Below are positions 4,978 to 30,984 of a stretch of 32,000 bases of DNA, in pieces. This DNA comes from Okeania sp. (lineage in GTDB: Bacteria > Cyanobacteriota > Cyanobacteriia > Cyanobacteriales > Microcoleaceae), in the NCBI RefSeq assembly GCF_035285525.1, contig NZ_JAYKGW010000061.1, positions 55,085 to 87,084 of the forward strand. The letters run 5' to 3'. The notes below the pieces were generated by a model that was not told the origin of the DNA, made no database searches, and saw only the letters and a program-made list of their open reading frames with translations. The position numbers were made by a program, and so were the translations under genes. Positions within the stretch are counted from its first letter, which is position 1, and each line of letters opens with the position of its first letter.

Positions 4978-5027
4978 GCTGTCAGTATTTTCTCAACTAA
5001 AGTTGCTTTCACAATAAGATACCAGAT

Positions 5028-5400
5028 ATCAGTTATTAGTTAAAAGAGGGAGTAGGGAGTAGGGAGTAGGGAGTAGGGGGGGAATAATAGATGTCTAGTT
5101 ATTAGTCAAAAGAGGGAGTAGGGAATAGGGAGTAGAGGCAAATAATATATTTCTAGTTATTAGTTATTAGTTATTAGTTAAAAGAGGGAGTAAGAAGTAG
5201 GGGCGAATAATAGATGTCTAGTTATCAGTTATTAATTATTAGTTAAAAGGGGGAGTAGGTAGTAGGGAGTAGGGAGGAATAATAGATGTCTAGTTATCAG
5301 TTATTAATTATTAGTTAAAAGAGGGAGCAGGTAGTAGGTAGTAGGGAAGAATAATAGATGTCTAGTTATCAGTTATTAATTATTAGTTATTAGTTTTAAA
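5028..5400. repeat. Tandem array, about 5.5 units of 59-72 bp
   Basis: Unit is agttat(t/c)agtta...aaaagagggagtagg(g/t)agtaggg...gaataatagatgtct, built from AGTTATT-type and GGGAGTA-type heptamers. Lies between the pyrH start and the SpoIIM-like stop. Confidence 0.85.
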
Positions 5401-5452
5401 TTATCAGTATTTCTATAATTTTCTCCTGAATCATGACTCCCAACACACAGAA

Positions 5453-6421
5453 CTATAGATTTTGTTGATGCTCTTTTTTTCGACTACAATAAATCAATAA
5501 AAGCATCAATAAACCCATCCCAAAAATGTATTTAAAAATATTTGGTATTAATGGATTTGGAGAGAAAAAACCTTCAACAATTCCAGCAATAACTAACAAT
5601 CCGACTACACCAAAAATTAATTGTGCAGCTTGGAAACCATAAAACTTTAAAGCATCAACTCGACGATATTTACCCGGAAATAAAATTGCTCTTGCTATTA
5701 ATAAACCAGCTCCACCAGCGAAAAATATAGCAGGTAATTCTAAAGCGCCATGAGGAAATACAAATGCCCAAAAAGGAAATGCTAAATTATGCTGACCAAC
5801 TAAAGCGCTTATTGACCCAATTAATAATCCATTAAATACCAATAAATAAATTGTGTAAACACCACCACTAATACCACCAGCAACTACACTAAATGAAACC
5901 CGTAAATTATTAATTATAATATTACTAGAAGCTAGAGGTTCAATTCCTACTATTGACCCCATCCATAATTCCTGGCGATCGCGTACCTGAGAAATTAGAG
6001 ATTCTGGTACTACTAAAGACATAAACACTGGGTCTTGCCAACTATACCACCAAGCTACCAGTCCAGCCACTAAAAAAAATGCTGTCCCTACCGCAGTATA
6101 AGCCCAAGTTTCTTGTACAATTGCGGGAAATCCCCATTGACAAAATTCCCAAACTGCTAGCCATTCTTGCTTTCGTTTTCCTTGATAAATTTGAGTGTAA
6201 CTACGAGCGGTTAACCTTTGTAAGTCTTGTTCCAAAATAGTTCCCACTTGATGGGTTTTAGCACGAGCTAAATCTGCTGATACAGAACGATACAAACTCG
6301 CCATTTCTTGAATCTGAGTTGCGGACAATGATTTTAATCCTTTGTCTTCCACTTTTCTTAATAGACTGTCTAAATGTTTCCAATTTTTTTCCCGACGACG
6401 AATCCAACGATTAATATTCAT
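5453..6421 (-). CDS. SpoIIM/DUF95-like integral membrane protein
   Basis: 322 aa. Soluble helical N-terminal ~100 aa (RRREKNWKHLDSLLRKVEDKGLKSLS...LYRSVSADLARAKT) followed by 5-6 hydrophobic helices, including FPHGALELPAIFFAGGAGL typical of this family. Family call rests on motif recollection, not a search. Confidence 0.7.
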   Translation of the reverse strand: MNINRWIRRREKNWKHLDSLLRKVEDKGLKSLSATQIQEMASLYRSVSADLARAKTHQVGTILEQDLQRLTARSYTQIYQGKRKQEWLAVWEFCQWGFPAIVQETWAYTAVGTAFFLVAGLVAWWYSWQDPVFMSLVVPESLISQVRDRQELWMGSIVGIEPLASSNIIINNLRVSFSVVAGGISGGVYTIYLLVFNGLLIGSISALVGQHNLAFPFWAFVFPHGALELPAIFFAGGAGLLIARAILFPGKYRRVDALKFYGFQAAQLIFGVVGLLVIAGIVEGFFSPNPLIPNIFKYIFGMGLLMLLLIYCSRKKEHQQNL

Positions 6422-6486
6422 TAAGCTTTCCTCATAGTCATTTTTTCTACCTTAAGATCGGAGTAAAATTTAGGTAAGCATTCAGT

Positions 6487-6623
6487 TATAGCCATCCTAT
6501 TTTATTCATGTCAAAAATCTTCCCTTTTTTCGGGAATAGGTATGGAGGCAATAGGTAATGGGTAAAAGTTTCGGAACTTATTTCTAGTTTTTGATTTGTT
6601 ACAACCTATTTAGGATTGCTATA
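6487..6623. mobile_element. MITE-D copy (TIR TATAGC(C/A)ATCCTA)
   Basis: tatagccatcctatttta ... cctatttaggattgctata, 137 bp. The internal ggtatggaggcaatagg block also occurs in reverse at 11650-11680. Confidence 0.65.
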
Positions 6624-6790
6624 TTAGGCATCAGCTATTCCTGGGGAATGCTGCGCCAACAGCAAATCCTATTTAAACTTTAAAATTTATTTAAATGAAT
6701 ATAACTTTTAAAGTTGGCTTTGATAGCAAGATTCTATTTCCCTCAACTAATTCCCTCAACTAATTAAGATTTTATCTAAAACTAAAATAA

Positions 6791-6913
6791 ATATCGCAAT
6801 CCTATTTTATTTGTGTACAAAATTTCATTGCTTTTTAGGGAACAGGGAACAGCCCGGAGTTTCAGTTTTTTATTTATTTCTTAATTAGTCACAACGTATT
6901 TAGAATTGCTATA
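6791..6913. mobile_element. MITE-D copy
   Basis: atatcgcaatcctattttat ... cgtatttagaattgctata, 123 bp. Same termini and layout as 6487-6623. Confidence 0.6.
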
Positions 6914-6976
6914 GATAACCGCTGCTTGCTGAATGCTTAAAAATTTAGATTGTAAGTAATTAAAATAATTTTAATT

Positions 6977-7918
6977 ATGTCTCAAAACCAAACACCAATA
7001 GAACCTCTAAGTGTAGGAAATGTTGTTAGTGCTGGCTTACGAATTTATCGAGACCATTTTAAGTCATATTTTGGTTTATCTGTTATAGTAAGTTTATGGT
7101 CTTTTCTCCCTTTTGTGCTTTTGATTCCTATAGTTTTATTGTTTATTTTTAGTCAGTTAGAAAGCCAAGCTTTATTAATACTAATTCCCCTGTGTTTATT
7201 ACTTATTTTATATAGTTCAGGAAAATCAATAGTTAATGGATCAATAATTGCTAGATTAGTATTTAGTGAATTAACAAATCAACCAGAAACTGTGAGTGAT
7301 ATTCGGCAGATTCTCAATCCCAAAATATGGATTTTTTTATGGGCGTTTTTTCTGTTATTTTTAATTGGAATAGGAGCTTATATTGGATTTTCTCTGGGGT
7401 TCGGAATTTTTGCTTTTATTATAACTGCTGTGGGATTTCCCTTTCAGGATAATTTTGTTTTAACAGGAATTGTAGTTTTAATTGGGATTGTAATTTTTGT
7501 TATTGCTTTGAGCTTGATGATCCGATTATTAACTCGCTTTTTTATTTTTGATATGCCTTTGACTGTTGAAGAAAATATTACTGCAACTAAAACTTTAGGA
7601 CGAAGTTGGGAATTAACTAAAGGATATATAGGTAGAATTTTTATGATATTGCTGGTAGCAAATTTGGTAAGTATTCCTATTTACATAGTTATACAAATTA
7701 TTGCTGCAATAATACAGGGTATTGTATTTGTAAATATTCCAGTTGAAACCATCGATCCTAGTTTTCAGTTATTATCTTTTCTGGTTGGATATGCTATAGG
7801 TATATTAGGTAATATATTTTTATTACCTTTTTGGCAAGCAATAAAAGCTGTGATTTATTATGACCTCCGCACTCGTCGAGAAGGCATGGGTTTAGAGTTA
7901 AGAAAGCGGGAAATTTAA
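6977..7918 (+). CDS. Polytopic membrane protein (glycerophosphodiester-phosphodiesterase membrane-domain-like)
   Basis: 313 aa with at least six hydrophobic segments. N-terminal PLSVGNVVSAGLRIYRDHFKSYF and C-terminal YYDLRTRREG resemble the GPDPase_memb/DUF975-like architecture. The family assignment is tentative. Confidence 0.6.
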   Translation: MSQNQTPIEPLSVGNVVSAGLRIYRDHFKSYFGLSVIVSLWSFLPFVLLIPIVLLFIFSQLESQALLILIPLCLLLILYSSGKSIVNGSIIARLVFSELTNQPETVSDIRQILNPKIWIFLWAFFLLFLIGIGAYIGFSLGFGIFAFIITAVGFPFQDNFVLTGIVVLIGIVIFVIALSLMIRLLTRFFIFDMPLTVEENITATKTLGRSWELTKGYIGRIFMILLVANLVSIPIYIVIQIIAAIIQGIVFVNIPVETIDPSFQLLSFLVGYAIGILGNIFLLPFWQAIKAVIYYDLRTRREGMGLELRKREI

Positions 7919-8600
7919 TTTGGTTACAGTAGGATAAATTGATTGGTTTTAGGGAATAGGGAATAGGAAAAAAGTATAGAATAATTTTTGTTATAAAATT
8001 TTGAAAAGAATGAGACTTTAAAGAAACTGTTAGAGCTAGAGTTAGAAATAGAAAATATTAACATGATTAATAACGGTTGGTTTGACGAAAGGTTTTTATC
8101 TCAATCTTGATCAGAATATCAAATAGGTGAAAGAAGCGATCGCTTAGAAAAAATGTGTGGCTGATAACTAATAATTAATAACTGTAAAATAATGTATGGG
8201 TTGAAAATTAAGAAATGAGATTTTGAAGAAACTGTTAGAGCTAGAGTTGGAAATAGAAAATATTAAAGCGATGGCTTAGAAAAAATGTGTGGCTGATAAC
8301 TAATAATTAATAACTGTAAAATAATGTATGGGTTGAAAATTAAGAAATGAGATTTTGGAGGAAACTGCTAAAGCTAAAGTTGGAAACATGATTAACGACG
8401 GTTGGTTTGACGAAAGGTTTTTATCTCAATCTTGATCAGAATATCAAATAGGTGAAAGAAGCGATGGCTTAGAAAAAATGTGTAGCTGATAACTGAGAAC
8501 TAATAACTGTAAAATAATGTATGGGTTTAGAATTAAGAAAGTGGTAAATTTAGTTTTCTTAAAGTATAAGAAAGCAGGATAAATTAATTGATTTATATTA
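7885..8600 (+). repeat. Tandem array seeded by the 3' end of the 6977..7918 gene
   Basis: The gene end atgggtttagagttaagaaagcgggaaattta (7885) recurs at 8194, 8325 and 8521. The last copy matches at 29 of 32 nt and is followed by the same aggataaatt(g/a)attg flank. Units are about 8007-8209, 8210-8340 (lacking a 72-bp segment) and 8341-8535. Confidence 0.8.
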
Positions 8601-8610
8601 AGTAAGAAGA

Positions 8611-9396
8611 ATGAAAATTTTTAATCAAATTTCTATAAAAACTCCAGAAAGTGTAGAATTAGATTTTAAGTTGGCAGGAATTGGCAATCGTACTTATGCT
8701 CTAATTATTGATTATGTTATCTGGAGTTTGACTTTATTTTTAGTGCTAATTTTTGGCGTTTTTTTGTATTTCCAATTTGGAGATATTTGGGATAATTTCG
8801 GGTTAGATAGAGACCAGGTTTCACTGTGGATATTCTCAATTCAGTTATTAATTTTTTTCATTATATATGTCGGATATTTTGTTTTTTTTGAAACTATTTG
8901 GCAAGGGCAAACCCCGGGAAAACGTTATGTAAAAATTCGGGTAATTCGTGATGATGGTAGACAAATTAGATTGCAACAAGCAACTATTCGGGCTTTATTT
9001 CGTCCTGTAGATGATACTTTTTTTATTGGTATGTTATTAATTATTTTTAGTAAAAAGGAAAAGCGTTTAGGAGATTTAGTGGCGGGTACAATTGTTATTC
9101 AAGAAACAAAGGTTATTGCTGATATAGTTTCTACTTCGGAAACGGCAAAAAAATTAGCAAATTCTTTGTTGCAAGAGGCTAATATTTCAGAGTTATTACC
9201 TGAAGATTTTGCGGTAATTAAAGATTATCTTCAACGTTCTAAGTTAATGACTAAACAAGCAAATATAGAACTAAGTAAAAAATTAGCAAGTGAAATTCAA
9301 GCAATTATTAGTTTGACACAAATTCCCGAAAAAGTTTCTGCTACAGAATTTTTAGAAGCTGTTTATATTGCCTATCAGCAAAAATCAGAAAATTAA
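8611..9396 (+). CDS. RDD family membrane protein with C-terminal soluble helical extension
   Basis: 261 aa. Hydrophobic helices flank GQTPGKRYVKIRVIRDDGRQIRLQQATIRALFR, which carries the literal R-D-D signature, and LGDLVAGTIVI. About 90 aa of charged helical tail. Confidence 0.8.
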   Translation: MKIFNQISIKTPESVELDFKLAGIGNRTYALIIDYVIWSLTLFLVLIFGVFLYFQFGDIWDNFGLDRDQVSLWIFSIQLLIFFIIYVGYFVFFETIWQGQTPGKRYVKIRVIRDDGRQIRLQQATIRALFRPVDDTFFIGMLLIIFSKKEKRLGDLVAGTIVIQETKVIADIVSTSETAKKLANSLLQEANISELLPEDFAVIKDYLQRSKLMTKQANIELSKKLASEIQAIISLTQIPEKVSATEFLEAVYIAYQQKSEN

Positions 9397-9398
9397 AA

Positions 9399-9450
9399 CA
9401 GGACTTACGCAAAGGTACTACATATAGATATAGAACCCCTAAACGGGTCT
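9399..9450 (+). mobile_element. MITE-C solo left end directly after the RDD gene stop codon
   Basis: caggacttacgcaaaggtactacatatagatatag starts 3 nt after the TAA at 9394-9396. No matching right end lies before the next full copy. Another solo end, taggacttgcgtatgg, sits at 22858. Confidence 0.4.
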
Positions 9451-9670
9451 CCAAAATTAGTTGGGGAAATGGGGAGATGAGGAAATGGGGAGATGGGGAG
9501 ATGGGTTCTATAAGGCTATTTTTCTAGCTTTTTCCCTATTTCGCGTCCACGGTTAGGGTTAGGGGTGGGTTGACTCCTCACTTCTTTGGCAAAAAAACAC
9601 ATCTTTGTAAAGATACGGTTAAGGGTTCTATAGAGTCAAAAAACTATTGCACAATAGTTTTAAACACTAT

Positions 9671-9761
9671 CAGGACTTACGCAAAGGTACTATATGTAGA
9701 GTTAAAAAACTATAGCGCTATAGTTTTGAGCGCTATATTTAGGATCGCTGCGTAAGTCCTG
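9671..9761 (+). mobile_element. MITE-C copy (13-bp TIR CAGGACTTACGCA)
   Basis: caggacttacgcaaaggtactatatgtag...aaaactatagcgctatagtttt...gctgcgtaagtcctg, 91 bp. The core is a perfect 22-nt palindrome. Confidence 0.8.
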
Positions 9762-9803
9762 TTATTAATACCTGTATTTCATAATACTTGGAATCTAGTC
9801 CTT

Positions 9804-9836
9804 AGAAACCCGGTTTCTTAAAGAAACCGGGTTTCT
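9804..9836. terminator. Perfect 15-bp-stem palindrome between convergent RDD and DUF58 genes
   Basis: agaaacccggtttct-taa-agaaaccgggtttct. The arms are exact reverse complements. No flanking T-run, so this may be a dispersed palindromic element acting as a bidirectional stop. Confidence 0.45.
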
Positions 9837-9891
9837 GAACCTACGGTAACTAATACCCACACTTCCCACACCTCCCTACTCCCTACTCCCT

Positions 9892-11223
9892 CTAGAGTAA
9901 ATTCCGAGATTTTAGCTGTAAATATCTATCTACCAACTCTGTACTAATCTGATTTGCAGGTGCATCCAAAACCAAAACTCCTTTTTGTTTCAACTCAGCA
10001 AAAGCAACCTCTCTTTGACATAACAAATCTATTGCCACCCCACGAGAATAAGCAGCAGAAATTTTTTCATGTACCTGCTGATTTTCCCCAAAAGTTTCAG
10101 CATGAGCTAACTTATCCACTAAAGGGTCGCGCAAAGTCACGCAAAACGGTAAATAACGAGGCGTTAACTTTGCCAATGCTGATAATAACTCTCCAGAAGC
10201 AGTCCTATCCACAATATCTGTAATCATAACGATCAAAGCACGACGACTTTGTTGATTAACCACTCTGCTCACAGCTCCCACATAATCTGCTTCCAATAAA
10301 ACTGGTTGAATAGGAGTGAGACTTTCGACTAATTTTGATAACCGATATTGACCTCTCTCTGGTGGTATCCAAGTACTAACTTGGCGGTCGAATACTCCTA
10401 CCCCCACGCGATCGCCCCGACTCAAACCTGTCAATGCTAAGGACAAAGTAGCATTTAAACCCCAGTCAAACCGTTTTAAACCTTGCACTTGAGCAGTCAT
10501 CAACCGACCTCGATCTAGCAAAATAATTAAAGTTTGCTCGGTTTCTGGTTCCAAAACTCTCACCAGGGGACGACTGCGACGAGCTGTTGCTTTCCAGTCT
10601 ATTAAACGAGTATCGTCTCCAATACCATATTCTCGGAGTTCAGAAAATTCTGTTCCTATGCCCAGTGGTCGGTTTTGACGAATAGTGCCAGTGTTTTCTA
10701 GAGCAAGACGGATAGAGAGCGATCGCAGTCCTATTAAATCTGGATAAACTGCTACCTGTTGACTGGCAGAAATTTGCCATTGATGCCAAGTTAATCGCCA
10801 TTTTCCCAACTGTCTGACTTGAATATTACCCCATTGAAATTCACCACGTTTATTCGGGTTGATAATATAAGTTAATTCTTGACTTTTATTTGGTTCAATT
10901 TTTGCTGATAAAGTAGGAGGAGAAACAGTAAATTCTGAAGGATAATTATCGCGCAAGATAATGTTGGCTTTTTGTTTGCTAGATTCGACTAAGAAAGTAA
11001 TGTTATTATCGCGACCAATGGAAAGTTTGTTTAAAGGATGGCGGGTTATTTTAACTCTATTAGGTTTGACTGTTATTCCATCCCAAATTGCTAAACTACA
11101 GAGAATAAAATCAAACAGTGCTAATATTATTAAACTGATCGATTGATTAAATAAAATAGCAATTACTGGGGAAATTGCCATTCCTAATAATAATAGTAAA
11201 TATAAACGTTTTGAGGGAACCAT
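9892..11223 (-). CDS. DUF58 domain protein (vWA-like, membrane anchored)
   Basis: 443 aa. Two N-terminal TM helices. DUF58 signature REYGIGDDTRLIDWKATARRSRPLVRVLE followed by the vWA-like strand TLIILLDRGRLM. Lies downstream of a MoxR ATPase, as is usual for DUF58. Confidence 0.85.
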   Translation of the reverse strand: MVPSKRLYLLLLLGMAISPVIAILFNQSISLIILALFDFILCSLAIWDGITVKPNRVKITRHPLNKLSIGRDNNITFLVESSKQKANIILRDNYPSEFTVSPPTLSAKIEPNKSQELTYIINPNKRGEFQWGNIQVRQLGKWRLTWHQWQISASQQVAVYPDLIGLRSLSIRLALENTGTIRQNRPLGIGTEFSELREYGIGDDTRLIDWKATARRSRPLVRVLEPETEQTLIILLDRGRLMTAQVQGLKRFDWGLNATLSLALTGLSRGDRVGVGVFDRQVSTWIPPERGQYRLSKLVESLTPIQPVLLEADYVGAVSRVVNQQSRRALIVMITDIVDRTASGELLSALAKLTPRYLPFCVTLRDPLVDKLAHAETFGENQQVHEKISAAYSRGVAIDLLCQREVAFAELKQKGVLVLDAPANQISTELVDRYLQLKSRNLL

Positions 11224-11226
11224 TTT

Positions 11227-11338
11227 TTTTCATTTATCAGTTATCAGCGATTAATTTTCAGTTGTTAATTTTCAGTTATCAGGGATTAATTTTCAGTTAT
11301 CAACGATTAGTTTTCAGTTGTTAGTTTTCAATTATTAG
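11227..11338. repeat. 16 in-phase heptamers (TTTTCAG/TTATCAG/CGATTAA types), STRR-like
   Basis: Hand-phased as ttttcat ttatcag ttatcag cgattaa ttttcag ttgttaa ttttcag ttatcag ggattaa ttttcag ttatcaa cgattag ttttcag ttgttag ttttcaa ttattag. Starts 4 nt from the DUF58 start codon. Confidence 0.75.
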
Positions 11339-11341
11339 TTT

Positions 11342-11431
11342 AGGACTTAAGCAGTGACTCTAGATATCCTGCTTAAAACCCCATACGCAATAGTTTTTTG
11401 TTCTATATATAGCACCTTTGCGTAAGTCCTG
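11342..11431 (-). mobile_element. MITE-C copy, opposite orientation
   Basis: aggacttaagcagtgactc...acgcaatagtttttt...tatatagcacctttgcgtaagtcctg, 90 bp. Confidence 0.75.
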
Positions 11432-11824
11432 TAGTTATTAGTTGTTCAGGACTATTTTATTCTAAGTTACAGCATATCTTGGGCAAATGATGTACGAAGT
11501 AAATGGTGAAAAGATTAAGGAAAGAGGGAGCAGGGAGAGATACCTAATAGTTTAATAAAATTTACTGGTGTCAAATATTCTACATTTGATTTTGGCTACC
11601 TAGTTATAGTTGCAAAAATACTTTTTTCCTATTCCTTATTCCCTATTGCCTCCATACCTTTCCCCTGCTCCCTAAAAACAATAAATTTTGGCTTTCTTCA
11701 AAATTGAAATGCACCCGTTATAGTTAATATCACACCAAATCCAAAAATAAAACTAAACAGAAAATATTTTTTTCTATTACTTCTTCCTTCTCCCTTTTCC
11801 CTTCTTCCTTCTTGCTTCTAAATA

Positions 11825-12775
11825 TCACCTTGGCACAGAAACTTGTTTCAATATAGAACTAATTACCCCATCAATTATTACCCCATCTAAAAGCGATTCT
11901 GGTTTCAAAATTAATCTATGACGTAACAGAGGCAATGCCACCATTTTAATATCATCTGGAGTTACATAATTTCTATTATCCAACCAAGCTTGTGCTTTAC
12001 TAATTTTTAACCAAGAAACAGCAGCTCGTGGGGAAGCACCTAAAGCCAAATCTGGATGTTTTCGGGTTTGTTGAACTAATGCTAATAAATAATCTAAAAC
12101 TTTTTCTTGAAAATTAATAGCTTCTACTTCTTGTCTAGCTAAAATTATTTGTTCTACAGTTGCTACAGGTTCAATTTTATTTAAGTCGAAACTTTTAGCA
12201 CTAAAACCTTGTTGAGTATTTAGTAACATTTGTTTTTCTGCTGTTGTCTCTGGATAATCCATAATAATCTTAAATAAAAATCTGTCTAACTGTGCTTCTG
12301 GTAGAGGATATGTACCTTCAAATTCTAGGGAATTTTGAGTAGCAACTACCCAAAATAAATCGGGTAATTCTAAAGTTTTTCCGTCTAATGTTACTTGTTG
12401 TTCTGCCATTGCTTCAAGTAAAGCTGCCTGGGTTTTTGGTGGAGTTCGATTAATTTCATCTGCTAATAATATTTCTGCAAAAACAGGACCTTTTTTAAGA
12501 GTAAAATTCCGACTATTAAGGTCAAATACATTAGTTCCTAAAATATCAGATGGCAGAATATCTGGAGTTAGTTGAACTCGACGAAATTCGGCTTTAATTA
12601 ATTTGGCTAAAACTTTAACTGTCAGAGTTTTTCCTGTGCCTGGAACTCCTTCGAGTATTACATGACCTCCTGTTAATAGGGAAATTAATAATTGTTTAAT
12701 TGGTAAATTTTGACCGACAATTATTTGGATAATAGCTTGATAGAGTTGGGTAAATATAGAGTTAGTTTCTTTCAT
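11825..12775 (-). CDS. MoxR-family AAA+ ATPase
   Basis: 316 aa. Walker A GVPGTGKT. Walker B/sensor ILLADEINRTPPKTQAALLEAMAEQQVT. ATQNSLEFEGTYPLPEAQLDRF and GASPRA are characteristic of the MoxR (AAA_3) subfamily. Confidence 0.93.
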   Translation of the reverse strand: MKETNSIFTQLYQAIIQIIVGQNLPIKQLLISLLTGGHVILEGVPGTGKTLTVKVLAKLIKAEFRRVQLTPDILPSDILGTNVFDLNSRNFTLKKGPVFAEILLADEINRTPPKTQAALLEAMAEQQVTLDGKTLELPDLFWVVATQNSLEFEGTYPLPEAQLDRFLFKIIMDYPETTAEKQMLLNTQQGFSAKSFDLNKIEPVATVEQIILARQEVEAINFQEKVLDYLLALVQQTRKHPDLALGASPRAAVSWLKISKAQAWLDNRNYVTPDDIKMVALPLLRHRLILKPESLLDGVIIDGVISSILKQVSVPR

Positions 12776-13035
12776 TAATTTACTGACTATTTGTGAATAT
12801 TTTTTTTGTTTTAATTAGGGAATAGGTTATTTCAGTTATCAGTTATTAGTACCTCTCGCTGAAACATTAGGTATTAAAATACTGAAGTCTATTTTATCTA
12901 TAGATTAGATTCATTTAAATAAATACTTTACTATAAATCAATACAGTTCAGTTAAGGATTGTTCTAACATTTTTGTGGTCTGAAAAACCTATACAATGGT
13001 TCGATATCATAATAATTTTCGTATTAACTTATAAA

Positions 13036-13195
13036 TAAGGTTTGCTGAAAAATTCTTTTAGTAATGTGATTTATTCACCTAAAAATTGTTTGATAATTTG
13101 ACAGCATATTTCTGGCAAATCAGTTACAGAGTAAATTTATTTTAGGCATTTTGCCCGCCACAGATATACCTCTTTTTCAGTTATCAGCAAAACTC
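13036..13195 (-). mobile_element. MITE-A related short variant
   Basis: taaggtttgctgaaaaattctttt...ttatcagcaaaactc, i.e. inverted GGTTTGCTGA / TCAGCAAAAC ends. A further solo end aaggtttgactgaaaaagtctttt lies at 13221, and the block cttttagtaatgtgatttattcac repeats at 13056 and 13240. Confidence 0.35.
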
Positions 13196-13365
13196 TTTAA
13201 AAGAATACTTTACTATCAATAAGGTTTGACTGAAAAAGTCTTTTAGTAATGTGATTTATTCACTTGAAAATTTATGTATGATTTCCTCATAACTCCTGAC
13301 TCCTAATTTTAATGTGATTAATTAACCTAAAAAATTATATATAATCTTCTCCTGAATTCTAATTT

Positions 13366-14466
13366 TCATACTGACAAAATTTCCTCCCATTTATCTAACC
13401 AATCTACTAAATCTAATTCACTAATCTTTCCTTTTTTAAATTTAACTTTCAGCAGTTTTTCTAATTCTGTTGATGGCTGCCCAGTTTGTTGTATCCAAGC
13501 ATCTATTAACAATTGATCGTCAAGTAAAATTTTTCCTAATCCTAATTTATTTTGTAATTTTATTTGTTCTGCTTTTCCTATAGTTTCTAAAATAAATTCT
13601 GTACTTTCTGCTTTTTCTAATACCGTAGCTAAAGCTTGAATATAAGCTTTACTATTATCAATTACTGATGCTGATAATTTTATTGGTTTAGCCAACCGAC
13701 GATTTTCAGCAAAAATCAGAATAACTAAAATAATTAATCCTTGAATAAATATTGGGAATAAAGGAGTCTTAACTAAATAACTGATGATACTTTCTCCCAA
13801 CTCCTTTTCAATTACTTCTTTATCTTTATAACCATGAATATATTCATCTACTAAAATAGGTTGTTGATTTTGAGTAACAAGTTGAGCTAAAAATTCATAA
13901 TTTCCGATTATATCTTGATAAGCATTAGCTCCTAAAAATTGAGTAGTAGCTAAAATAATTTTCCCTCCCTCAAGCCGTTTTTCCCAAACTATAGCACCGT
14001 AGCGATCGCCTAATAAAACCTCATCTTTTTTTTCCTTAAATTTAATTGCTCTACGTCTGGTCTCAATCTTAACTTTTCCCACTTTTGTCTCATGGATAGT
14101 AGTAAAATCTGCTTTTGTTGGTTGGTTATTTATTCCTAAAATTACCAGAATATTTCCTTGCTTTACCCACTTATCTATCTCAGCAGAAATTACTGAATTT
14201 TTCAGTTTATTATTTACCCGTAATAAAGTTACTGGATAGTTAATATCTTGATTATTTATTAAATCTGTAAAAGATTTTTCCCATCGTTTAATCTCCACAT
14301 TTTTTTGCAACATAAAATTGTACCATGCACCATATCCACCAGGAGCGCGACTATAACTAGAACCACTATTTAATTGATTATTTGTTGGAGCTAAAAAAAT
14401 GCTAATTATTATAATTGAAATTATAGCGATCGCTCCCAATAACCATAATTTATTATTTTTCTTCAT
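13366..14466 (-). CDS. DUF4350-like membrane-anchored protein
   Basis: 366 aa. N-terminal TM (LWLLGAIAIISIIIISIFL), a large extracytoplasmic domain and a second TM (LFPIFIQGLIILVILIFA). Its position between the DUF4129-like gene and MoxR matches the usual DUF4350 context. The family call is from architecture and context. Confidence 0.6.
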   Translation of the reverse strand: MKKNNKLWLLGAIAIISIIIISIFLAPTNNQLNSGSSYSRAPGGYGAWYNFMLQKNVEIKRWEKSFTDLINNQDINYPVTLLRVNNKLKNSVISAEIDKWVKQGNILVILGINNQPTKADFTTIHETKVGKVKIETRRRAIKFKEKKDEVLLGDRYGAIVWEKRLEGGKIILATTQFLGANAYQDIIGNYEFLAQLVTQNQQPILVDEYIHGYKDKEVIEKELGESIISYLVKTPLFPIFIQGLIILVILIFAENRRLAKPIKLSASVIDNSKAYIQALATVLEKAESTEFILETIGKAEQIKLQNKLGLGKILLDDQLLIDAWIQQTGQPSTELEKLLKVKFKKGKISELDLVDWLDKWEEILSV

Positions 14467-15064
14467 CCTTGATTTGTTGATAAGCTTGTTGACATTCTTG
14501 AAACATAGAAGCAGAAATTTCTAAATCAGCAAATAATAACTGCTGATGAATTATAAATAACTTTTGGTATGGTTGAGATTGAGATAAATTTTGAATTAAT
14601 TTTAGATATTCTCCATCAGTGCGACTAGATTGGTGAAGTATAATTTCTCTATCATTTAATCCTTGCAACATTGCCATATATAAACAACGAAAAGCTTCTC
14701 CATAATTGCCTAGTTTTTGAAATTTTTGTGATTGATTTAACCAACCTGTAATTGATAAATCTGTCTCTAAATTTTCTCTAGTTTTTGTTGTTAAGTTGAT
14801 GCTATTACGAATATGATAAAAATAAGGATTTATAATTCTGATAATTTTTATAGCTAGCCAACTTAACAAACCAGCAAAAATTAGCCAAGCAACTATTTTA
14901 GCTATCATTAATATTGTAAAAATATCCCACCATGAAGGCAAATCTATTTCTGGTAAATCAGGGTCTACTTTAGCAATTTGTAGTTCCCACCATTCACTAA
15001 TTTGTTGTTGTATTTGTTGAATTTGCCAACCTAAACTATCCTTTTGAAACGAATTTTCAGACAT
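14453..15064 (-). CDS. DUF4129-like membrane protein
   Basis: 203 aa. One TM (ILMIAKIVAWLIFAGLLSWLAI) followed by a helical domain with HQSSRTDGEYL, compared with the T-x-x-E-Y motif of DUF4129. Its 3' end overlaps the next gene by 14 nt, suggesting translational coupling. Confidence 0.55.
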   Translation of the reverse strand: MSENSFQKDSLGWQIQQIQQQISEWWELQIAKVDPDLPEIDLPSWWDIFTILMIAKIVAWLIFAGLLSWLAIKIIRIINPYFYHIRNSINLTTKTRENLETDLSITGWLNQSQKFQKLGNYGEAFRCLYMAMLQGLNDREIILHQSSRTDGEYLKLIQNLSQSQPYQKLFIIHQQLLFADLEISASMFQECQQAYQQIKDEEK

Positions 15065-15542: not shown

Positions 15543-15805
15543 TAGGGCTTGGGTGTGAAAATATGAAAGAATTGAAAAATAAAGATTTTAGCAACTTGTT
15601 TGTTGGAAAAAAGTATCAGCTTTTAGGTCAAAAAGATTAAAAAATTTAGGACAAAAACCTCGCACTTCAGAGAAAAATTAAGAGACAACTCTTCTAACTA
15701 ATTCCTTTATAACTCCTCTTCTTCCTGACTCCTGACTCCTGACTGCTGACCCCTAACTACTTCCTACTCCCTACCTCTACCATCAAACTTTTTCAGCAAA
15801 CCCTA
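15543..15805 (+). mobile_element. MITE-A copy
   Basis: TAGGGCTTGGGTG...cctgactcctgactcctgac...actttttCAGCAAACCCTA. Length 263 bp with TA at both flanks. Confidence 0.7.
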
Positions 15806-19011: not shown

Positions 19012-19503
19012 TTAAATCTGAGATAAAAGCTCAAAATAAAAATCAGATACTAATATAAAAAATCCTCCATAACCTTCATTATCTATAAAAGTATCAATAC
19101 CCCAAAAAGTGGGAAGATGACCCAATGGTGCATCAAGATTAAAAGTATATTGAGATGGATAATTAAGCCAAACTCCTTCTTTGCACCAACCCACATAATC
19201 GGCTAATTTGCATATAATACCAACTTGCCAAAGATTTTCTTGATTTACTTGATTAAGTTTGTTAGCAGATATTATCTGCTTATGTATAGAAAAACCAAAA
19301 TGATTATTACTATATTTTAACCATAACTTATCAAGAGTTTTTATCTCTACAGACATTTCTTCAATATCTTCAACATCATATATTTCCATGAGTATTTTTT
19401 CTGTTTCATCATTAGCATATTGCCACTTTTGTTGTTCGAGATAATTATCTAAATTTGCAAATAATAAAAAGAAATTGTTATCTTCTGCTTCCATCTCTAA
19501 CAA
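19012..19503 (-). CDS. GUN4-domain protein (stand-alone core domain)
   Basis: 163 aa. LDKLWLKYSNNHFGFSIHKQI, VGWCKEGVWLNY and FNLDAPLGHLPTFW resemble the conserved GUN4 core motifs (W..YS.G.FGFS, GW, AP.GHLP). Assigned from motif memory. Confidence 0.65.
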   Translation of the reverse strand: MLEMEAEDNNFFLLFANLDNYLEQQKWQYANDETEKILMEIYDVEDIEEMSVEIKTLDKLWLKYSNNHFGFSIHKQIISANKLNQVNQENLWQVGIICKLADYVGWCKEGVWLNYPSQYTFNLDAPLGHLPTFWGIDTFIDNEGYGGFFILVSDFYFELLSQI

Positions 19504-28914: not shown

Positions 28915-30984
28915 ATGACCATTCCTAAATCTGTATTGGCAGAACTGGTGCTAGAGGTTCAGCATATCAAACCACAAATCTACTTCAAGTCATCCTTAAC
29001 TGCTCTCTCTCATGCAATGGAAGACCAGGTTTTAGCAAGCTCCGATCAACCTTTGGTAATAGCTACTTTTCAGAGAGAGCATTTTTATCGTCAAGAGGCT
29101 CACCGTTATCGACGAATTGCGAATCTTACATCCCAAGTATATGTGCTAGCTGCACCAGAAACAGAGTTTAAAAATTCTTCTGAATATTATGAAACAGTAG
29201 CTTTTAATTCTAAAGATGCTTTAAGTAGAGAATGGAATTTATTGGTACTTGGTCAACAATATTCAAGTTGTTTAATTTGTAATGAGTGTGATAATTCGGG
29301 TCTAGTTGATGAAACATCCCAATTCAATGGAATGGAACAAGCACGTCGGTTTGAGGGTATCTGGACTTTTGATCATCAGGTATGTGTCCAATCTGCTATT
29401 TTACTATTCCATCGAATTCTTAAGTATAGACCAGAGTTAAAGAAAAAAGTCCAACTAGCTACAGAAGTTTATGGTATTAATTTGGACTTAAAAAAGGGAA
29501 AAAAATCTCCTAAAAAGAAATCTCCTTCTAATGGTAAAAATAAGCAAACCTCAGCAGTAATTGGAAATACTAACTTTCACGATCCTTTTGCCCAACGTTT
29601 GGTGACTTATTTACAAGCAAGTCAATATAAGTTGATTAAGGCTTATCGCTCAATTGCAGCTCAAGAACAAAAACAACGCTTAATTAATATTATCTCTTCT
29701 TCTATGAGGCGATCGCTAGATCCGGATGAGATTATTAAAGTGGCAGTTGCCGAACTAGGAAAAGCACTTTTAGCAGACCGATGTTTAATTTATCAGTGTC
29801 GCCCTACAGATGAGATAGCTACGATTACTCATGAGTATTTACGGCCATCAGTAAAATCTTTGCTGAATCAGTTGTGGCCTCTAAAAGAGAATCCCTTATT
29901 TCAGAAAGTTATTCAAACTAAAGAGCGAGTTTATATAGAAGATACAATTTTACTACCTGAAGATTTGCTGGCCAAAACATCAGAAACTACTAAATCTCAA
30001 GGGAGAAATTCTATAGAAAACTTAATATCTCAATGGGAGATTTCGAGTTGGTTGATTATGCCTCTACTTTATCAGGGACGGCTATTGGGTATTGTAGAAT
30101 TGCATAATTGTGGATCGTGTTCCCATAACTGGTCTGAAGAACAAACAGATTTAGTAGAAGCGATCGCTACTCAATTAAGTATGACTTTAATTCAGGCAGA
30201 AACTTATACTCATCTGGAAGAATTAAATCAACAATTGGAGGCCCTTGATCGGACTCGCAGTAATTTAATTGCAATTACTGGCCATGAGTTACGGACTCCT
30301 TTATCTACTATCCAAGTTTGCTTGGAAAGTTTAAGTCAAGAACCAGATATGCCAGAAGAGTTGCGTCAAGTTATGCTAGAAACTGCTTTAGCAGATGCAG
30401 ATAGAATGCGCAACCTTGTGCAAGATTTCTTAACATTGTCTCATTTAGAAAGTGGTAGAGTTGAATGGAATATAGAACATCTACCTCTATTGGAATGTGT
30501 AGATTTAGCTTTGAGTAGTGTTCGTGCCCACAACTTAGAGAAGGAGTTGCCAAATATTACTACTCAGGTGTCTTCAGAATTACCTTTAGTATTGGCCGAT
30601 GGAGAATGGTTAGTAGAGGTTTTGTCCAAACTTTTGGACAATGCTTGTAAGTTTACTCAGGCGGAGGGAAAAGTAATAATTACAGCTACTTCTTCTAATA
30701 GTGAAAATATGTTGGAGGTGACTATTTCTGATACTGGTCGTGGGATTGAACCTGCTAGGTTAGAGGCTGTGTTTGACCGTTTTTATCAAGAAGAAGGTGC
30801 TTTACGACGGAGTGTGGGTGGTACTGGTTTAGGTTTAGCTATTTGTCGTCAGGTTATTACTCGTTTAGGGGGAAAAATTTGGGCTGAGTCGGCAGGTAAG
30901 GATCGAGGTAGTCAGTTTCATTTTACTATTCCAATTGTTGGTAATAGTCAAAAGCAACAAGAAATGCAAAAGAAACTTAATTAG
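28915..30984 (+). CDS. Sensor histidine kinase, DICT-like N-terminal domain + GAF + HisKA + HATPase_c
   Basis: 689 aa. N-terminal SLTALSHAMEDQVL...PLVIATFQREHFYRQEAHRYRRIA is DICT-like. The GAF region is at about 270-430. H-box ITGHELRTPLSTI, N-box LLDNACKF, G1 DTGRGI, G2 GGTGLGLAICRQ. Confidence 0.92.
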   Translation: MTIPKSVLAELVLEVQHIKPQIYFKSSLTALSHAMEDQVLASSDQPLVIATFQREHFYRQEAHRYRRIANLTSQVYVLAAPETEFKNSSEYYETVAFNSKDALSREWNLLVLGQQYSSCLICNECDNSGLVDETSQFNGMEQARRFEGIWTFDHQVCVQSAILLFHRILKYRPELKKKVQLATEVYGINLDLKKGKKSPKKKSPSNGKNKQTSAVIGNTNFHDPFAQRLVTYLQASQYKLIKAYRSIAAQEQKQRLINIISSSMRRSLDPDEIIKVAVAELGKALLADRCLIYQCRPTDEIATITHEYLRPSVKSLLNQLWPLKENPLFQKVIQTKERVYIEDTILLPEDLLAKTSETTKSQGRNSIENLISQWEISSWLIMPLLYQGRLLGIVELHNCGSCSHNWSEEQTDLVEAIATQLSMTLIQAETYTHLEELNQQLEALDRTRSNLIAITGHELRTPLSTIQVCLESLSQEPDMPEELRQVMLETALADADRMRNLVQDFLTLSHLESGRVEWNIEHLPLLECVDLALSSVRAHNLEKELPNITTQVSSELPLVLADGEWLVEVLSKLLDNACKFTQAEGKVIITATSSNSENMLEVTISDTGRGIEPARLEAVFDRFYQEEGALRRSVGGTGLGLAICRQVITRLGGKIWAESAGKDRGSQFHFTIPIVGNSQKQQEMQKKLN

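Follow-up and report, generated by a model that had tools for sequence, protein, structure and literature searches.

Seven genes of the Okeania locus

A 32-kb stretch of an Okeania sp. contig, low in GC (about 33%) and referred to below as the window, carries seven genes between positions 5453 and 15064 that constitute a well-defined, uncharacterised MoxR-DUF58 membrane module. All seven open reading frames (ORFs) lie where an initial annotation, made from the sequence alone, had placed them, and their lengths agree with those of the consecutive NCBI proteins MEB3340397 to MEB3340403 of Okeania sp. The families named in that annotation stand for six of the ORFs, which pass the Pfam gathering thresholds (SpoIIM, RDD, DUF58, AAA_3/MoxR, DUF4350 and DUF4129), and the motifs GVPGTGKT, LLADEINR, DTRLIDWKATARRSRPLVR, VIRDDG, SRTDGEY and YYDLRTRREG were each located in the window translations. 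Transmembrane (TM) helices are predicted in six of the proteins and none in MoxR, in agreement with the description of the set as one soluble ATPase plus six membrane proteins.

By gene orientation there are three transcription units. Four genes form a minus-strand unit in the order DUF4129-DUF4350-MoxR-DUF58, hereafter the ATPase operon; a DUF975-like gene and an RDD gene, in that order, form a plus-strand pair that is convergent on DUF58; and the SpoIIM gene, on the minus strand, is divergent from the DUF975-like gene. With SpoIIM included, five genes are encoded on the minus strand, and not four as first counted. The genes flanking the cluster are of the housekeeping kind and do not form a defence island.

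The first gene of the ATPase operon encodes the DUF4129 protein (14453-15064, minus strand), and its 3' end overlaps the start of the DUF4350 gene by 14 nt. The 203-aa product matches PF13559 (E = 8.2e-10; 39.0 bits against a gathering cut-off of 24.8) and has one TM helix at about residues 48-66, a predicted N-out/C-in topology and a C-terminal helical DUF4129 domain; it is without a transglutaminase (TGL) core, which 203 residues are too few to hold. The DUF4350 gene (13366-14466, minus strand) encodes 366 aa (PF14258, 9.6e-13; 49.2 bits against 30.4) comprising an N-terminal signal-anchor TM helix, an extracytoplasmic domain of about 210 aa and a second TM helix at about residues 235-253. 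The TM helices had been placed at the two ends of this protein, but about 113 residues follow the second helix and probably form a cytoplasmic tail. The ectodomain is GldG-like or flavodoxin-like, the link to GldG having been made with HHpred by Makarova, Galperin & Koonin 2015 (PMC5898192), and the Catenovulum DUF4350 orthologue gives a weak ABC_transp_aux match. A phmmer search of 1.84 billion representatives with DUF4350 gave 417 matches, those listed being close relatives, and other phyla were not reached; tblastn with the Okeania and Nonomuraea DUF4350 proteins against plasmids returned only the Nonomuraea query's own record, because the family is too divergent for the method.

The MoxR-type AAA+ ATPase (11825-12775, minus strand; 316 aa) is soluble and matches AAA_3 (9.5e-62; 207.1 bits against 27) and AAA_lid_2 (2.8e-21; 75.5 against 22.7). 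It has a Walker A motif (GVPGTGKT), a Walker B motif (LLADEINR) and, for sensor 1 and the arginine-finger region, ATQN and PEAQLDRF. An alignment of 48 orthologues shows no variation in Walker B and has PEAQLDRF in 47 of them; the GVPGTGKT form of Walker A is found in 44, with variation only outside the glycine/lysine core. The commonest variants of the sensor-1 motif and of the sensor-2-like GASPR motif retain the cores ATQN and GAS.R, respectively. Given that PEAQLDRF, Walker B and the cores of Walker A and sensor 1 are all conserved, the protein is predicted to be competent as an ATPase. The closest solved structure is 2R44, an uncharacterised MoxR from Cytophaga hutchinsonii (3.5e-75).

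The last gene of the operon encodes the DUF58 protein (9892-11223, minus strand; 443 aa), which matches DUF58 (1.1e-29; 103.6 bits against 23.4) and, at the cut-off, VWA_2 (27.0 against 27). An AlphaFold2 (AF2) model, with a predicted local distance difference test (pLDDT) score of 76, comprises a TM hairpin (residues 5-50), a beta-sandwich (57-160), a poorly ordered linker and an alpha/beta domain (195-440). The sandwich is Ig/macroglobulin-like and the alpha/beta domain vWA-like, and Foldseek matched the model to Ig/macroglobulin-like sandwiches and to the vWA-containing ITIH1 (6fpy). The alignment to position 1 of the VWA_2 profile begins at residue 232, and at the position of the metal-ion-dependent adhesion site (MIDAS) the window protein has the degenerate sequence LLDRGRLM. 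This is general: all 86 DUF58 orthologues examined, from four phyla, have D-x-G-x-x-[M/S] at this position and none has the canonical D-x-S-x-S.

Sequence searches of the PDB with DUF58, DUF4350 and DUF4129 gave no significant relative. By the positive-inside rule the body of DUF58, the DUF4129 domain and the 113-aa tail of DUF4350 are predicted to lie on MoxR's cytoplasmic side, and on this topology the DUF4350 domain of about 210 aa is the only large extracytoplasmic part of the system.

The remaining three genes form what we call the triad. The SpoIIM-family membrane protein (5453-6421, minus strand; 322 aa) is identified by PF01944 (3.6e-37; 128.3 bits against 26.9) and combines an N-terminal cytoplasmic helical domain, DUF8413 (PF28475, in a precomputed annotation, at about residues 1-104), with six TM helices. 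Its AF2 model (pLDDT 82) likewise has a four-helix N-terminal domain followed by six TM helices, for which Foldseek found no meaningful fold match in the PDB (best E 0.42). Five polar residues, N172, N197, H224, E228 and E283, are invariant among cyanobacterial, proteobacterial and actinobacterial members. The 313-aa polytopic protein (6977-7918, plus strand; at least five TM helices) has no Pfam match itself, and its assignment to the DUF975/GPDPase_memb/DUF7847 group comes from its 1,221 homologues, many of which carry PF10110 (GPDPase_memb), PF06161 (DUF975) or PF25231 (DUF7847) and to which NCBI gives the name DUF975; the early guess that it is GPDPase_memb-like was a reasonable one. The RDD-family membrane protein (8611-9396, plus strand; 261 aa; PF06271, 1.9e-22; 80.5 bits against 24.1) has a soluble C-terminal region of about 100 aa. 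A docking domain shared among the cytoplasmic parts was considered and rejected, as hhalign comparisons of the DUF4129 C-terminus, the DUF4350 tail, the SpoIIM N-terminus, the RDD C-terminus and parts of DUF58 gave probabilities that were all below 3%.

Linkage within and beyond the cyanobacteria

The co-localisation of the seven genes is not mere local synteny, since 19 of 46 cyanobacterial loci and 18 of 21 of actinobacterial type have the full set, with compact versions in Paracoccus, Rhizobium, Catenovulum and Prevotella. These figures derive from the best 80 DUF58 loci, the best 80 actinobacterial-type loci and plasmid records. For the cyanobacteria, 185,579 species genomes were scanned with a two-sequence cyanobacterial DUF58 alignment as anchor; this gave 277 relatives, and the best 80, all cyanobacterial except for a few evidently mis-binned metagenome-assembled genomes (MAGs), were examined by searching their six-frame ORFs with the seven window proteins. 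Forty-six loci had at least 6 kb on each side of DUF58. In 19 of these the complete set is present in the order and orientation of the window, and the complete loci span Oscillatoriales, Nostocales, Chroococcidiopsis and Waterburya (among them Microcoleus, Kastovskya, Oscillatoria princeps, Microseira, Anabaena/Dolichospermum and Cylindrospermum). Two shorter contigs outside the 46, from Trichodesmium (L009 in our numbering of loci) and from a member of the Microcoleaceae (L034), also carry all seven.

The loci resolve into two separable sub-modules, the DUF4129-DUF4350-MoxR-DUF58 operon and the triad of SpoIIM with the divergent DUF975-like and RDD genes. Four of the 46 have the four-gene operon only, two have DUF58 with the triad, as is the case in Tolypothrix PCC 7910, and four are otherwise partial. 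The triad itself holds together closely: every SpoIIM-bearing cyanobacterial locus (25/25) has the DUF975-like and RDD genes adjoining, and RDD accompanies SpoIIM in 52 of 55 actinobacterial-type loci as well. The DUF4129 gene lies upstream of DUF4350 in 31 of the 61 cyanobacterial loci with at least 5 kb of upstream flank. A search of the cyanobacterial loci for an eighth conserved member yielded none, the other ORFs there being antisense shadows or lineage-specific neighbours.

The contiguous cluster is not fixed even within Okeania, because in sister species (L011-L014 and L092) it is divided between contigs, one bearing DUF58 by itself and another the triad; in L011 (SIO2C9) and L014 the lone DUF58 gene has less than 6 kb on one side. 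Several loci of Coleofasciculaceae, Waterburya and Cylindrospermum (L015-L020, L024 and L051) carry a second, divergent DUF975-like paralogue directly downstream of DUF58, additional to the one flanked by SpoIIM and RDD. A 263-aa gene with a faint 2H-phosphodiesterase match adjoins RDD in Tolypothrix PCC 7910 (L001, 11923-12714) and in N. punctiforme (L090, 7334-8125), and is absent from the Okeania window. Three loci labelled as Actinomycetota, Candidatus Gracilibacteria and Acetobacteraceae MAGs (L027, L039 and L065) have DUF58 proteins 63-71% identical to that of Okeania, and L027 carries the full cyanobacterial arrangement; these are probably cases of bin contamination by cyanobacterial contigs.

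Among actinobacterial-type loci, a metagenome scan anchored on an actinobacterial SpoIIM-like protein gave 535 relatives, the best 80 of which were kept. Where there was enough flank, 18 of 21 loci have all seven families, in the order RDD (leftward), SpoIIM (rightward) and then DUF58, MoxR, DUF4350, DUF4129 and the DUF975-like gene (all leftward); DUF58 is present in 36 of 43. Nonomuraea and Nocardia have this form, including the DUF975-like gene, which is matched by a profile of the cyanobacterial DUF975-like family (7e-19 in Nonomuraea, 3e-5 in Nocardia).

Other phyla were searched by tblastn of the SpoIIM-like protein against plasmid and replicon records, followed by checks of annotation and of Pfam/HMM matches. 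In Paracoccus and Rhizobium the genes run DUF805-DUF4129-DUF4350-MoxR-DUF58-SpoIIM-RDD, with weak DUF4129 and DUF4350 matches, and are co-directional with overlapping stops; for Rhizobium, 50 replicons matched the SpoIIM query and one, that of R. leguminosarum WSM1689, was inspected. Catenovulum has a complete, co-directional RDD-SpoIIM-(515 aa)-DUF4350-MoxR-DUF58 set, and a fusion there joins a polytopic module to a TM helix and a weak DUF4129-like region; a second fusion, of SpoIIM to four additional TM helices, occurs in Bernardetia. The complete version in Prevotella, called as co-directional, has RDD leftward and then, rightward, SpoIIM, a 336-aa protein with six TM helices, a 204-aa protein with one, DUF4350, MoxR and DUF58. 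Profile searches with cross-phylum alignments found, among the matches listed, only cyanobacterial and rhizobial/Paracoccus sequences. The two modules are joined in five bacterial lineages from four phyla, with differing gene orders, and at least five of the seven genes lie within 15 kb of one another across phyla, which is the test of linkage that the initial annotation had put forward.

The Okeania system is the cyanobacterial counterpart of Rv3689-Rv3695 of M. tuberculosis (moxR2 is Rv3692), which by annotation is the same seven-gene set. In an RNA-seq table for M. chelonae, Rv3689 and Rv3691-Rv3695 correspond to a membrane protein, DUF4350, MoxR, DUF58, SpoIIM and RDD; from Nocardia and Nonomuraea, we infer that Rv3689 is the DUF975-like gene and Rv3690 the DUF4129 gene. 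Rv3689-Rv3695 and its actinobacterial orthologues share with the Okeania cluster the seven families, the order DUF4129-DUF4350-MoxR-DUF58, the adjacency of RDD and SpoIIM and the presence of a DUF975-like polytopic gene, and in Okeania the seven families lie within about 10 kb with the operon order kept. The two differ in that the DUF975-like gene leads the ATPase operon in actinobacteria, whereas in cyanobacteria it lies between SpoIIM and RDD. That these domains stand side by side in actinobacterial genomes, as the initial annotation had it, is borne out by M. chelonae, Nonomuraea, Nocardia and the 18 metagenome loci. The listed cluster genes also fall together in M. chelonae, their log2 fold changes lying at about -6 to -8. 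The three outcomes that would have counted against the initial annotation did not occur: the profile matches hold, the orthologues are linked rather than scattered and expression is concerted. MSMEG_6193/6195, initially taken for the M. smegmatis orthologues, proved to be bagAB and were set aside.

A possible mechanism and its alternatives

We put at about nine in ten the probability that the seven genes are a functional unit. As to what this unit does, our reading, to which we give roughly two chances in five, is that a membrane-tethered MoxR/DUF58 pair remodels a SpoIIM/RDD/DUF975 complex at the cell envelope. MoxR ATPases work with vWA partners on dedicated client complexes, and the mechanism that we find most economical follows this logic. 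In favour of it are the linkage and gene fusions described above, concerted expression and co-purification in mycobacteria, the conserved ATPase motifs and the modelled architecture of DUF58. A cytoplasmic MoxR hexamer would be held at the inner membrane face by DUF58, whose TM hairpin would carry the Ig-like beta-sandwich and the MIDAS-less vWA-like domain and act as an adaptor. DUF4129, with a cytoplasmic helical domain and one TM helix, and DUF4350, with a periplasmic GldG-like domain, a TM helix and a cytoplasmic tail, would complete a transmembrane adaptor or sensor. ATP hydrolysis might then be spent on assembling, disassembling or switching a polytopic SpoIIM/DUF975/RDD complex, which would be the client or working part and perform an envelope-facing task. 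Our best guess for that task is cell-envelope or septal remodelling, rather than metal insertion or thylakoid biogenesis. What the data establish directly is the gene content, its conservation and linkage, the domain folds and the state of the motifs; the topology, the contacts between the proteins, the client and the role in the cell are inferred.

Several lines, each of them weak, suggest such an envelope or division role. B. subtilis SpoIIM is a scaffold for peptidoglycan hydrolases, and the Okeania protein shares the PF01944 domain with this member of the SpoIID/M/P engulfment complex. The likeness is one of analogy: cyanobacteria do not form endospores, a search of the 32-kb window found no SpoIID or SpoIIP genes in it, and the Okeania protein, unlike B. 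subtilis SpoIIM, has the extra N-terminal DUF8413 and is linked to RDD and MoxR. In mycobacteria, Rv3694c (SpoIIM) and Rv3695 (RDD) co-purify with the divisome-associated Rv0954, Rv3691 is induced when BCG grows slowly and is required for that growth, Rv3689 contains a strong CRP site, and a variant of Rv3690 was seen in one cycloserine-resistant double mutant. Among the known systems closest to this one, operons of the Bat / RL3499-RL3502 type (Bacteroides aerotolerance, Rhizobium envelope integrity and Borrelia BB0170-0176) have MoxR followed by DUF58 with membrane partners, and envelope-related phenotypes have reportedly been found for them. The Okeania cluster differs in having no BatA/BatB TM-vWA or TPR proteins, the neighbours of its MoxR-DUF58 pair being DUF4350, DUF4129 and RDD. 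The only TPR-containing ORF of the window, a pentapeptide-repeat/TPR protein at 805-1572, is unrelated and lies about 4 kb outside the cluster.

A number of observations weigh against the remodelling mechanism or the unity of the set. DUF58 is alone in 17 of the 46 well-flanked cyanobacterial loci, mostly from Nostoc species with one other Okeania genome (L012), while the triad occurs without the ATPase operon in N. punctiforme and Okeania SIO2C9. Of the whole set, Bernardetia has just the RDD and SpoIIM genes. Among the neighbours examined, no conserved gene points to a client. Contact between MoxR/DUF58 and the triad is putative. The topology of DUF58, DUF4129 and DUF4350 is a prediction from hydropathy and the positive-inside rule, and Makarova et al. 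took the archaeal vWA protein as secreted (PMC5898192). The envelope or division role draws on the analogy with SpoIIM, one co-immunoprecipitation table and scattered, weak mycobacterial hints.

Parts of the neighbourhood are already in the literature, so the description of the system as undescribed stands only for the whole. Makarova et al. defined an archaeal DUF4350-MoxR-vWA neighbourhood as a 'predicted secretion or membrane remodelling complex' and in one sentence noted that bacterial SpoIIM homologues adjoin vWA and COG0714 ATPase genes (PMC5898192); Zhang & Aravind 2012 treated a related MoxR-vWA-transglutaminase operon (PMC3495828). In full-text literature we found nothing that delimits all seven components as one set or puts them to an experimental test, nothing that pairs MoxR with DUF4129 or, in a relevant way, DUF58 with cyanobacteria, and no functional work on Rv3689-Rv3695. 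One apparent match of DUF58 to Anabaena concerned DUF583 and was discarded.

Could the cluster instead be a membrane-proximal quality-control or degradation system, in which DUF58 recruits substrates, MoxR unfolds them and a membrane component, possibly the SpoIIM-like protein with its N/N/H/E/E residues, cleaves them? We consider this unlikely. The SpoIIM-like protein does have invariant polar intramembrane residues across four phyla in a fold without a solved relative, but profile searches (Pfam/NCBIfam) detected no peptidase domain in any of the seven proteins, and we know of no report of catalysis by a SpoIIM-family protein. DUF4129 is usually C-terminal in TGL proteins, and given these architectures the gene looks like a remnant or cousin of the TGL system, although its product is too short for the TGL core. 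Such a degradative role was predicted for the MoxR-vWA-TGL operon (PMC3495828), and that model is itself only a prediction. The MoxR-vWA(DUF58)-YebA operon described there likewise has a MoxR and DUF58 pair with a membrane-anchored third partner; the Okeania set has no Transglut_core/TGL match in its seven proteins (E <= 0.01) and four additional membrane proteins.

It is also quite unlikely that a MoxR/DUF58/DUF4350/DUF4129 chaperone and a SpoIIM/DUF975/RDD membrane complex work independently of each other and are no more than frequent neighbours. The separation of the modules in many cyanobacteria and in Bernardetia is as this would predict, yet the modules are joined in the five lineages with different gene orders, share one co-directional operon, with genes that overlap, in each of Paracoccus, Rhizobium, Catenovulum and Prevotella, and are together in 18 of 21 actinobacterial-type loci and co-regulated in M. 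chelonae.

Secretion or the assembly of a surface structure, as proposed for the archaeal arCOG01314 (DUF4350)-MoxR-vWA neighbourhood, is a third possibility, and a decidedly unlikely one. The archaeal set (PMC5898192) has in common with the bacterial one a DUF4350 protein with its ectodomain, a COG0714 MoxR and an Ig-like plus vWA (DUF58) protein, and DUF4350 resembles GldG of the gliding and T9SS-associated ABC system. However, the S-layer-like or Ig-domain proteins of the archaeal set (arCOG02884 and others) are absent from the window cluster and from conserved cyanobacterial neighbours, and the bacterial clusters have no conserved genes for cargo of a secreted, S-layer-like or Ig-domain kind. 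The bacterial set adds SpoIIM, RDD, DUF4129 and the DUF975-like protein, the body of its DUF58 is predicted to be cytoplasmic and not secreted as in the archaeal proposal, its only sizeable extracytoplasmic domain is the DUF4350 ectodomain, and the cluster has no channel-forming or outer-membrane component.

A role in ion or metal homeostasis, whether as a transporter or as a machine for inserting metal cofactors, is very unlikely. Metal insertion is a known task of the chelatases and of some MoxR-vWA pairs, NorQ/NorD and CoxD/CoxE among them, and RDD proteins have been reported to be cation/proton antiporters, one of them a Na+/H+ antiporter. Metal delivery, which the initial annotation had entertained, is disfavoured because the MIDAS motif is degenerate in all 86 DUF58 orthologues and there is no client metalloenzyme; neither a metalloenzyme nor a metal-transport gene is conserved beside the cluster. 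RavA-ViaA, CbbQ-CbbO and NorQ-NorD do couple a MoxR AAA+ protein to a vWA-fold partner, as here, but the partner in Okeania is membrane-anchored and MIDAS-degenerate, and there are no Rubisco, NOR or LdcI client genes near the cluster. Matches of the window MoxR to NCBIfam models (cobalto- and Mg-chelatase subunits, RavA and GvpN) fall far below the cut-offs, RavA, the only one of these three systems among the matches, scoring 31 bits against 681.

That the system is a thylakoid-specific biogenesis factor, a role also proposed at first, or an anti-phage defence system is highly improbable: in favour are the cyanobacterial host, the existence of conflict systems among MoxR-vWA systems and a weak bpMoxR Pfam match (3.4e-11), but a thylakoid role is made unlikely by the occurrence of the system in non-photosynthetic Actinomycetota, Alpha- and Gammaproteobacteria and Bacteroidota, PADLOC gave only generic AAA matches and an RDD-domain match to the C-terminus of PD-T4-6, the flanks are housekeeping genes, and gene order is conserved across whole cyanobacterial orders.

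Few AAA+ proteins are as widespread as the MoxR ATPases, for most of which no client is known. The cluster supplies a defined and strongly linked set of candidate clients (SpoIIM-like, RDD and DUF975-like) that has been kept in organisms ranging from cyanobacteria to M. tuberculosis, Rhizobium and Prevotella, and the target of the MoxR/DUF58 module thereby becomes a directly testable question in several tractable organisms. The cluster would also give a first context to five large families of unknown function (DUF58, DUF4350, DUF4129, RDD and DUF975/GPDPase_memb) and likewise to non-sporulation SpoIIM homologues; if the link to envelope or division in mycobacteria is true, the system could matter for drug-target work. 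A bolder version, which we hold to be doubtful, is that of a pan-bacterial, seven-component, ATP-powered membrane machine in which a MoxR hexamer and its DUF58 adaptor drive the cycling or assembly of a SpoIIM/RDD/DUF975 platform, and in which the SpoIIM-like subunit could be a new intramembrane enzyme or channel acting on the envelope during growth and division, in M. tuberculosis as elsewhere.

Intergenic regions and repeats of the window

The cluster takes up 9.6 kb in the window, whereas its relatives in Trichodesmium and Microcoleaceae occupy about 6.5-7.4 kb. The excess comes from gaps of 500-700 nt between the genes, full of short dispersed repeats and of tandem repeats based on 7 nt. 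Within the ATPase operon, the spacer between MoxR and DUF58 (11224-11824) is filled with tandem repeats of 7, 14 and 21 nt and that between DUF4350 and MoxR (12776-13365) is enlarged; together they explain part of the excess of about 3 kb, the remaining gaps being enlarged too. The four genes abut or overlap in the Microcoleaceae locus L034 and show little separation in Trichodesmium L009.

The divergent region between the SpoIIM and DUF975-like genes (6422-6976, 555 nt), so defined by gene orientation, presumably holds the promoters of SpoIIM and of the DUF975-like/RDD pair; promoter and terminator scans of the window stayed at background level, and Rfam and tRNA scans of it found nothing. 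This gap is well under 100 nt in other cyanobacteria: about 80 nt separate the called genes in Tolypothrix (L001), and in L021 the ORF limits are a few nt apart, which is an underestimate, since ORFs so delimited extend upstream of the real start codons.

The 693-nt spacer before RDD contains, at 8516-8573, a 58-nt stretch that repeats the 3' end of the DUF975-like gene (7881-7938) at 79% identity and still codes for MGLELRK, and beside it are three copies of a 156-nt direct repeat (8060-8540). As Okeania SIO2C9 (L092) has four tandem DUF975-like genes at this place, the copy is probably the relic of a lost tandem paralogue.

Heptanucleotide-based tandem repeats lie at 5017-5410, 9462-9505, 9860-9894, 11227-11341, 11780-11819 and 15723-15758, with units AGGGAGT, TAGTTAT, CTTCTTC and TCCTGAC and a 72-nt higher-order repeat; they resemble those short tandem repeats that filamentous cyanobacteria typically have. 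A short dispersed repeat, CAGGACTTACGCAAAGGTAC, has three matches against 0.01 expected, its positions being 9399-9418, 9671-9690, 9724-9764 (reverse) and 11412-11431 (reverse), so that it stands on both sides of the DUF58 gene in inverted orientation. It also forms a hairpin with 41-nt arms (9668-9764) in the terminator region of the convergent RDD and DUF58 genes, and may be MITE-like or a bidirectional terminator.

Other genes of the window, unlinked to the cluster, include a stand-alone GUN4-like gene (19012-19503) and a DICT-CHASE6-GAF histidine kinase gene (28915-30984).

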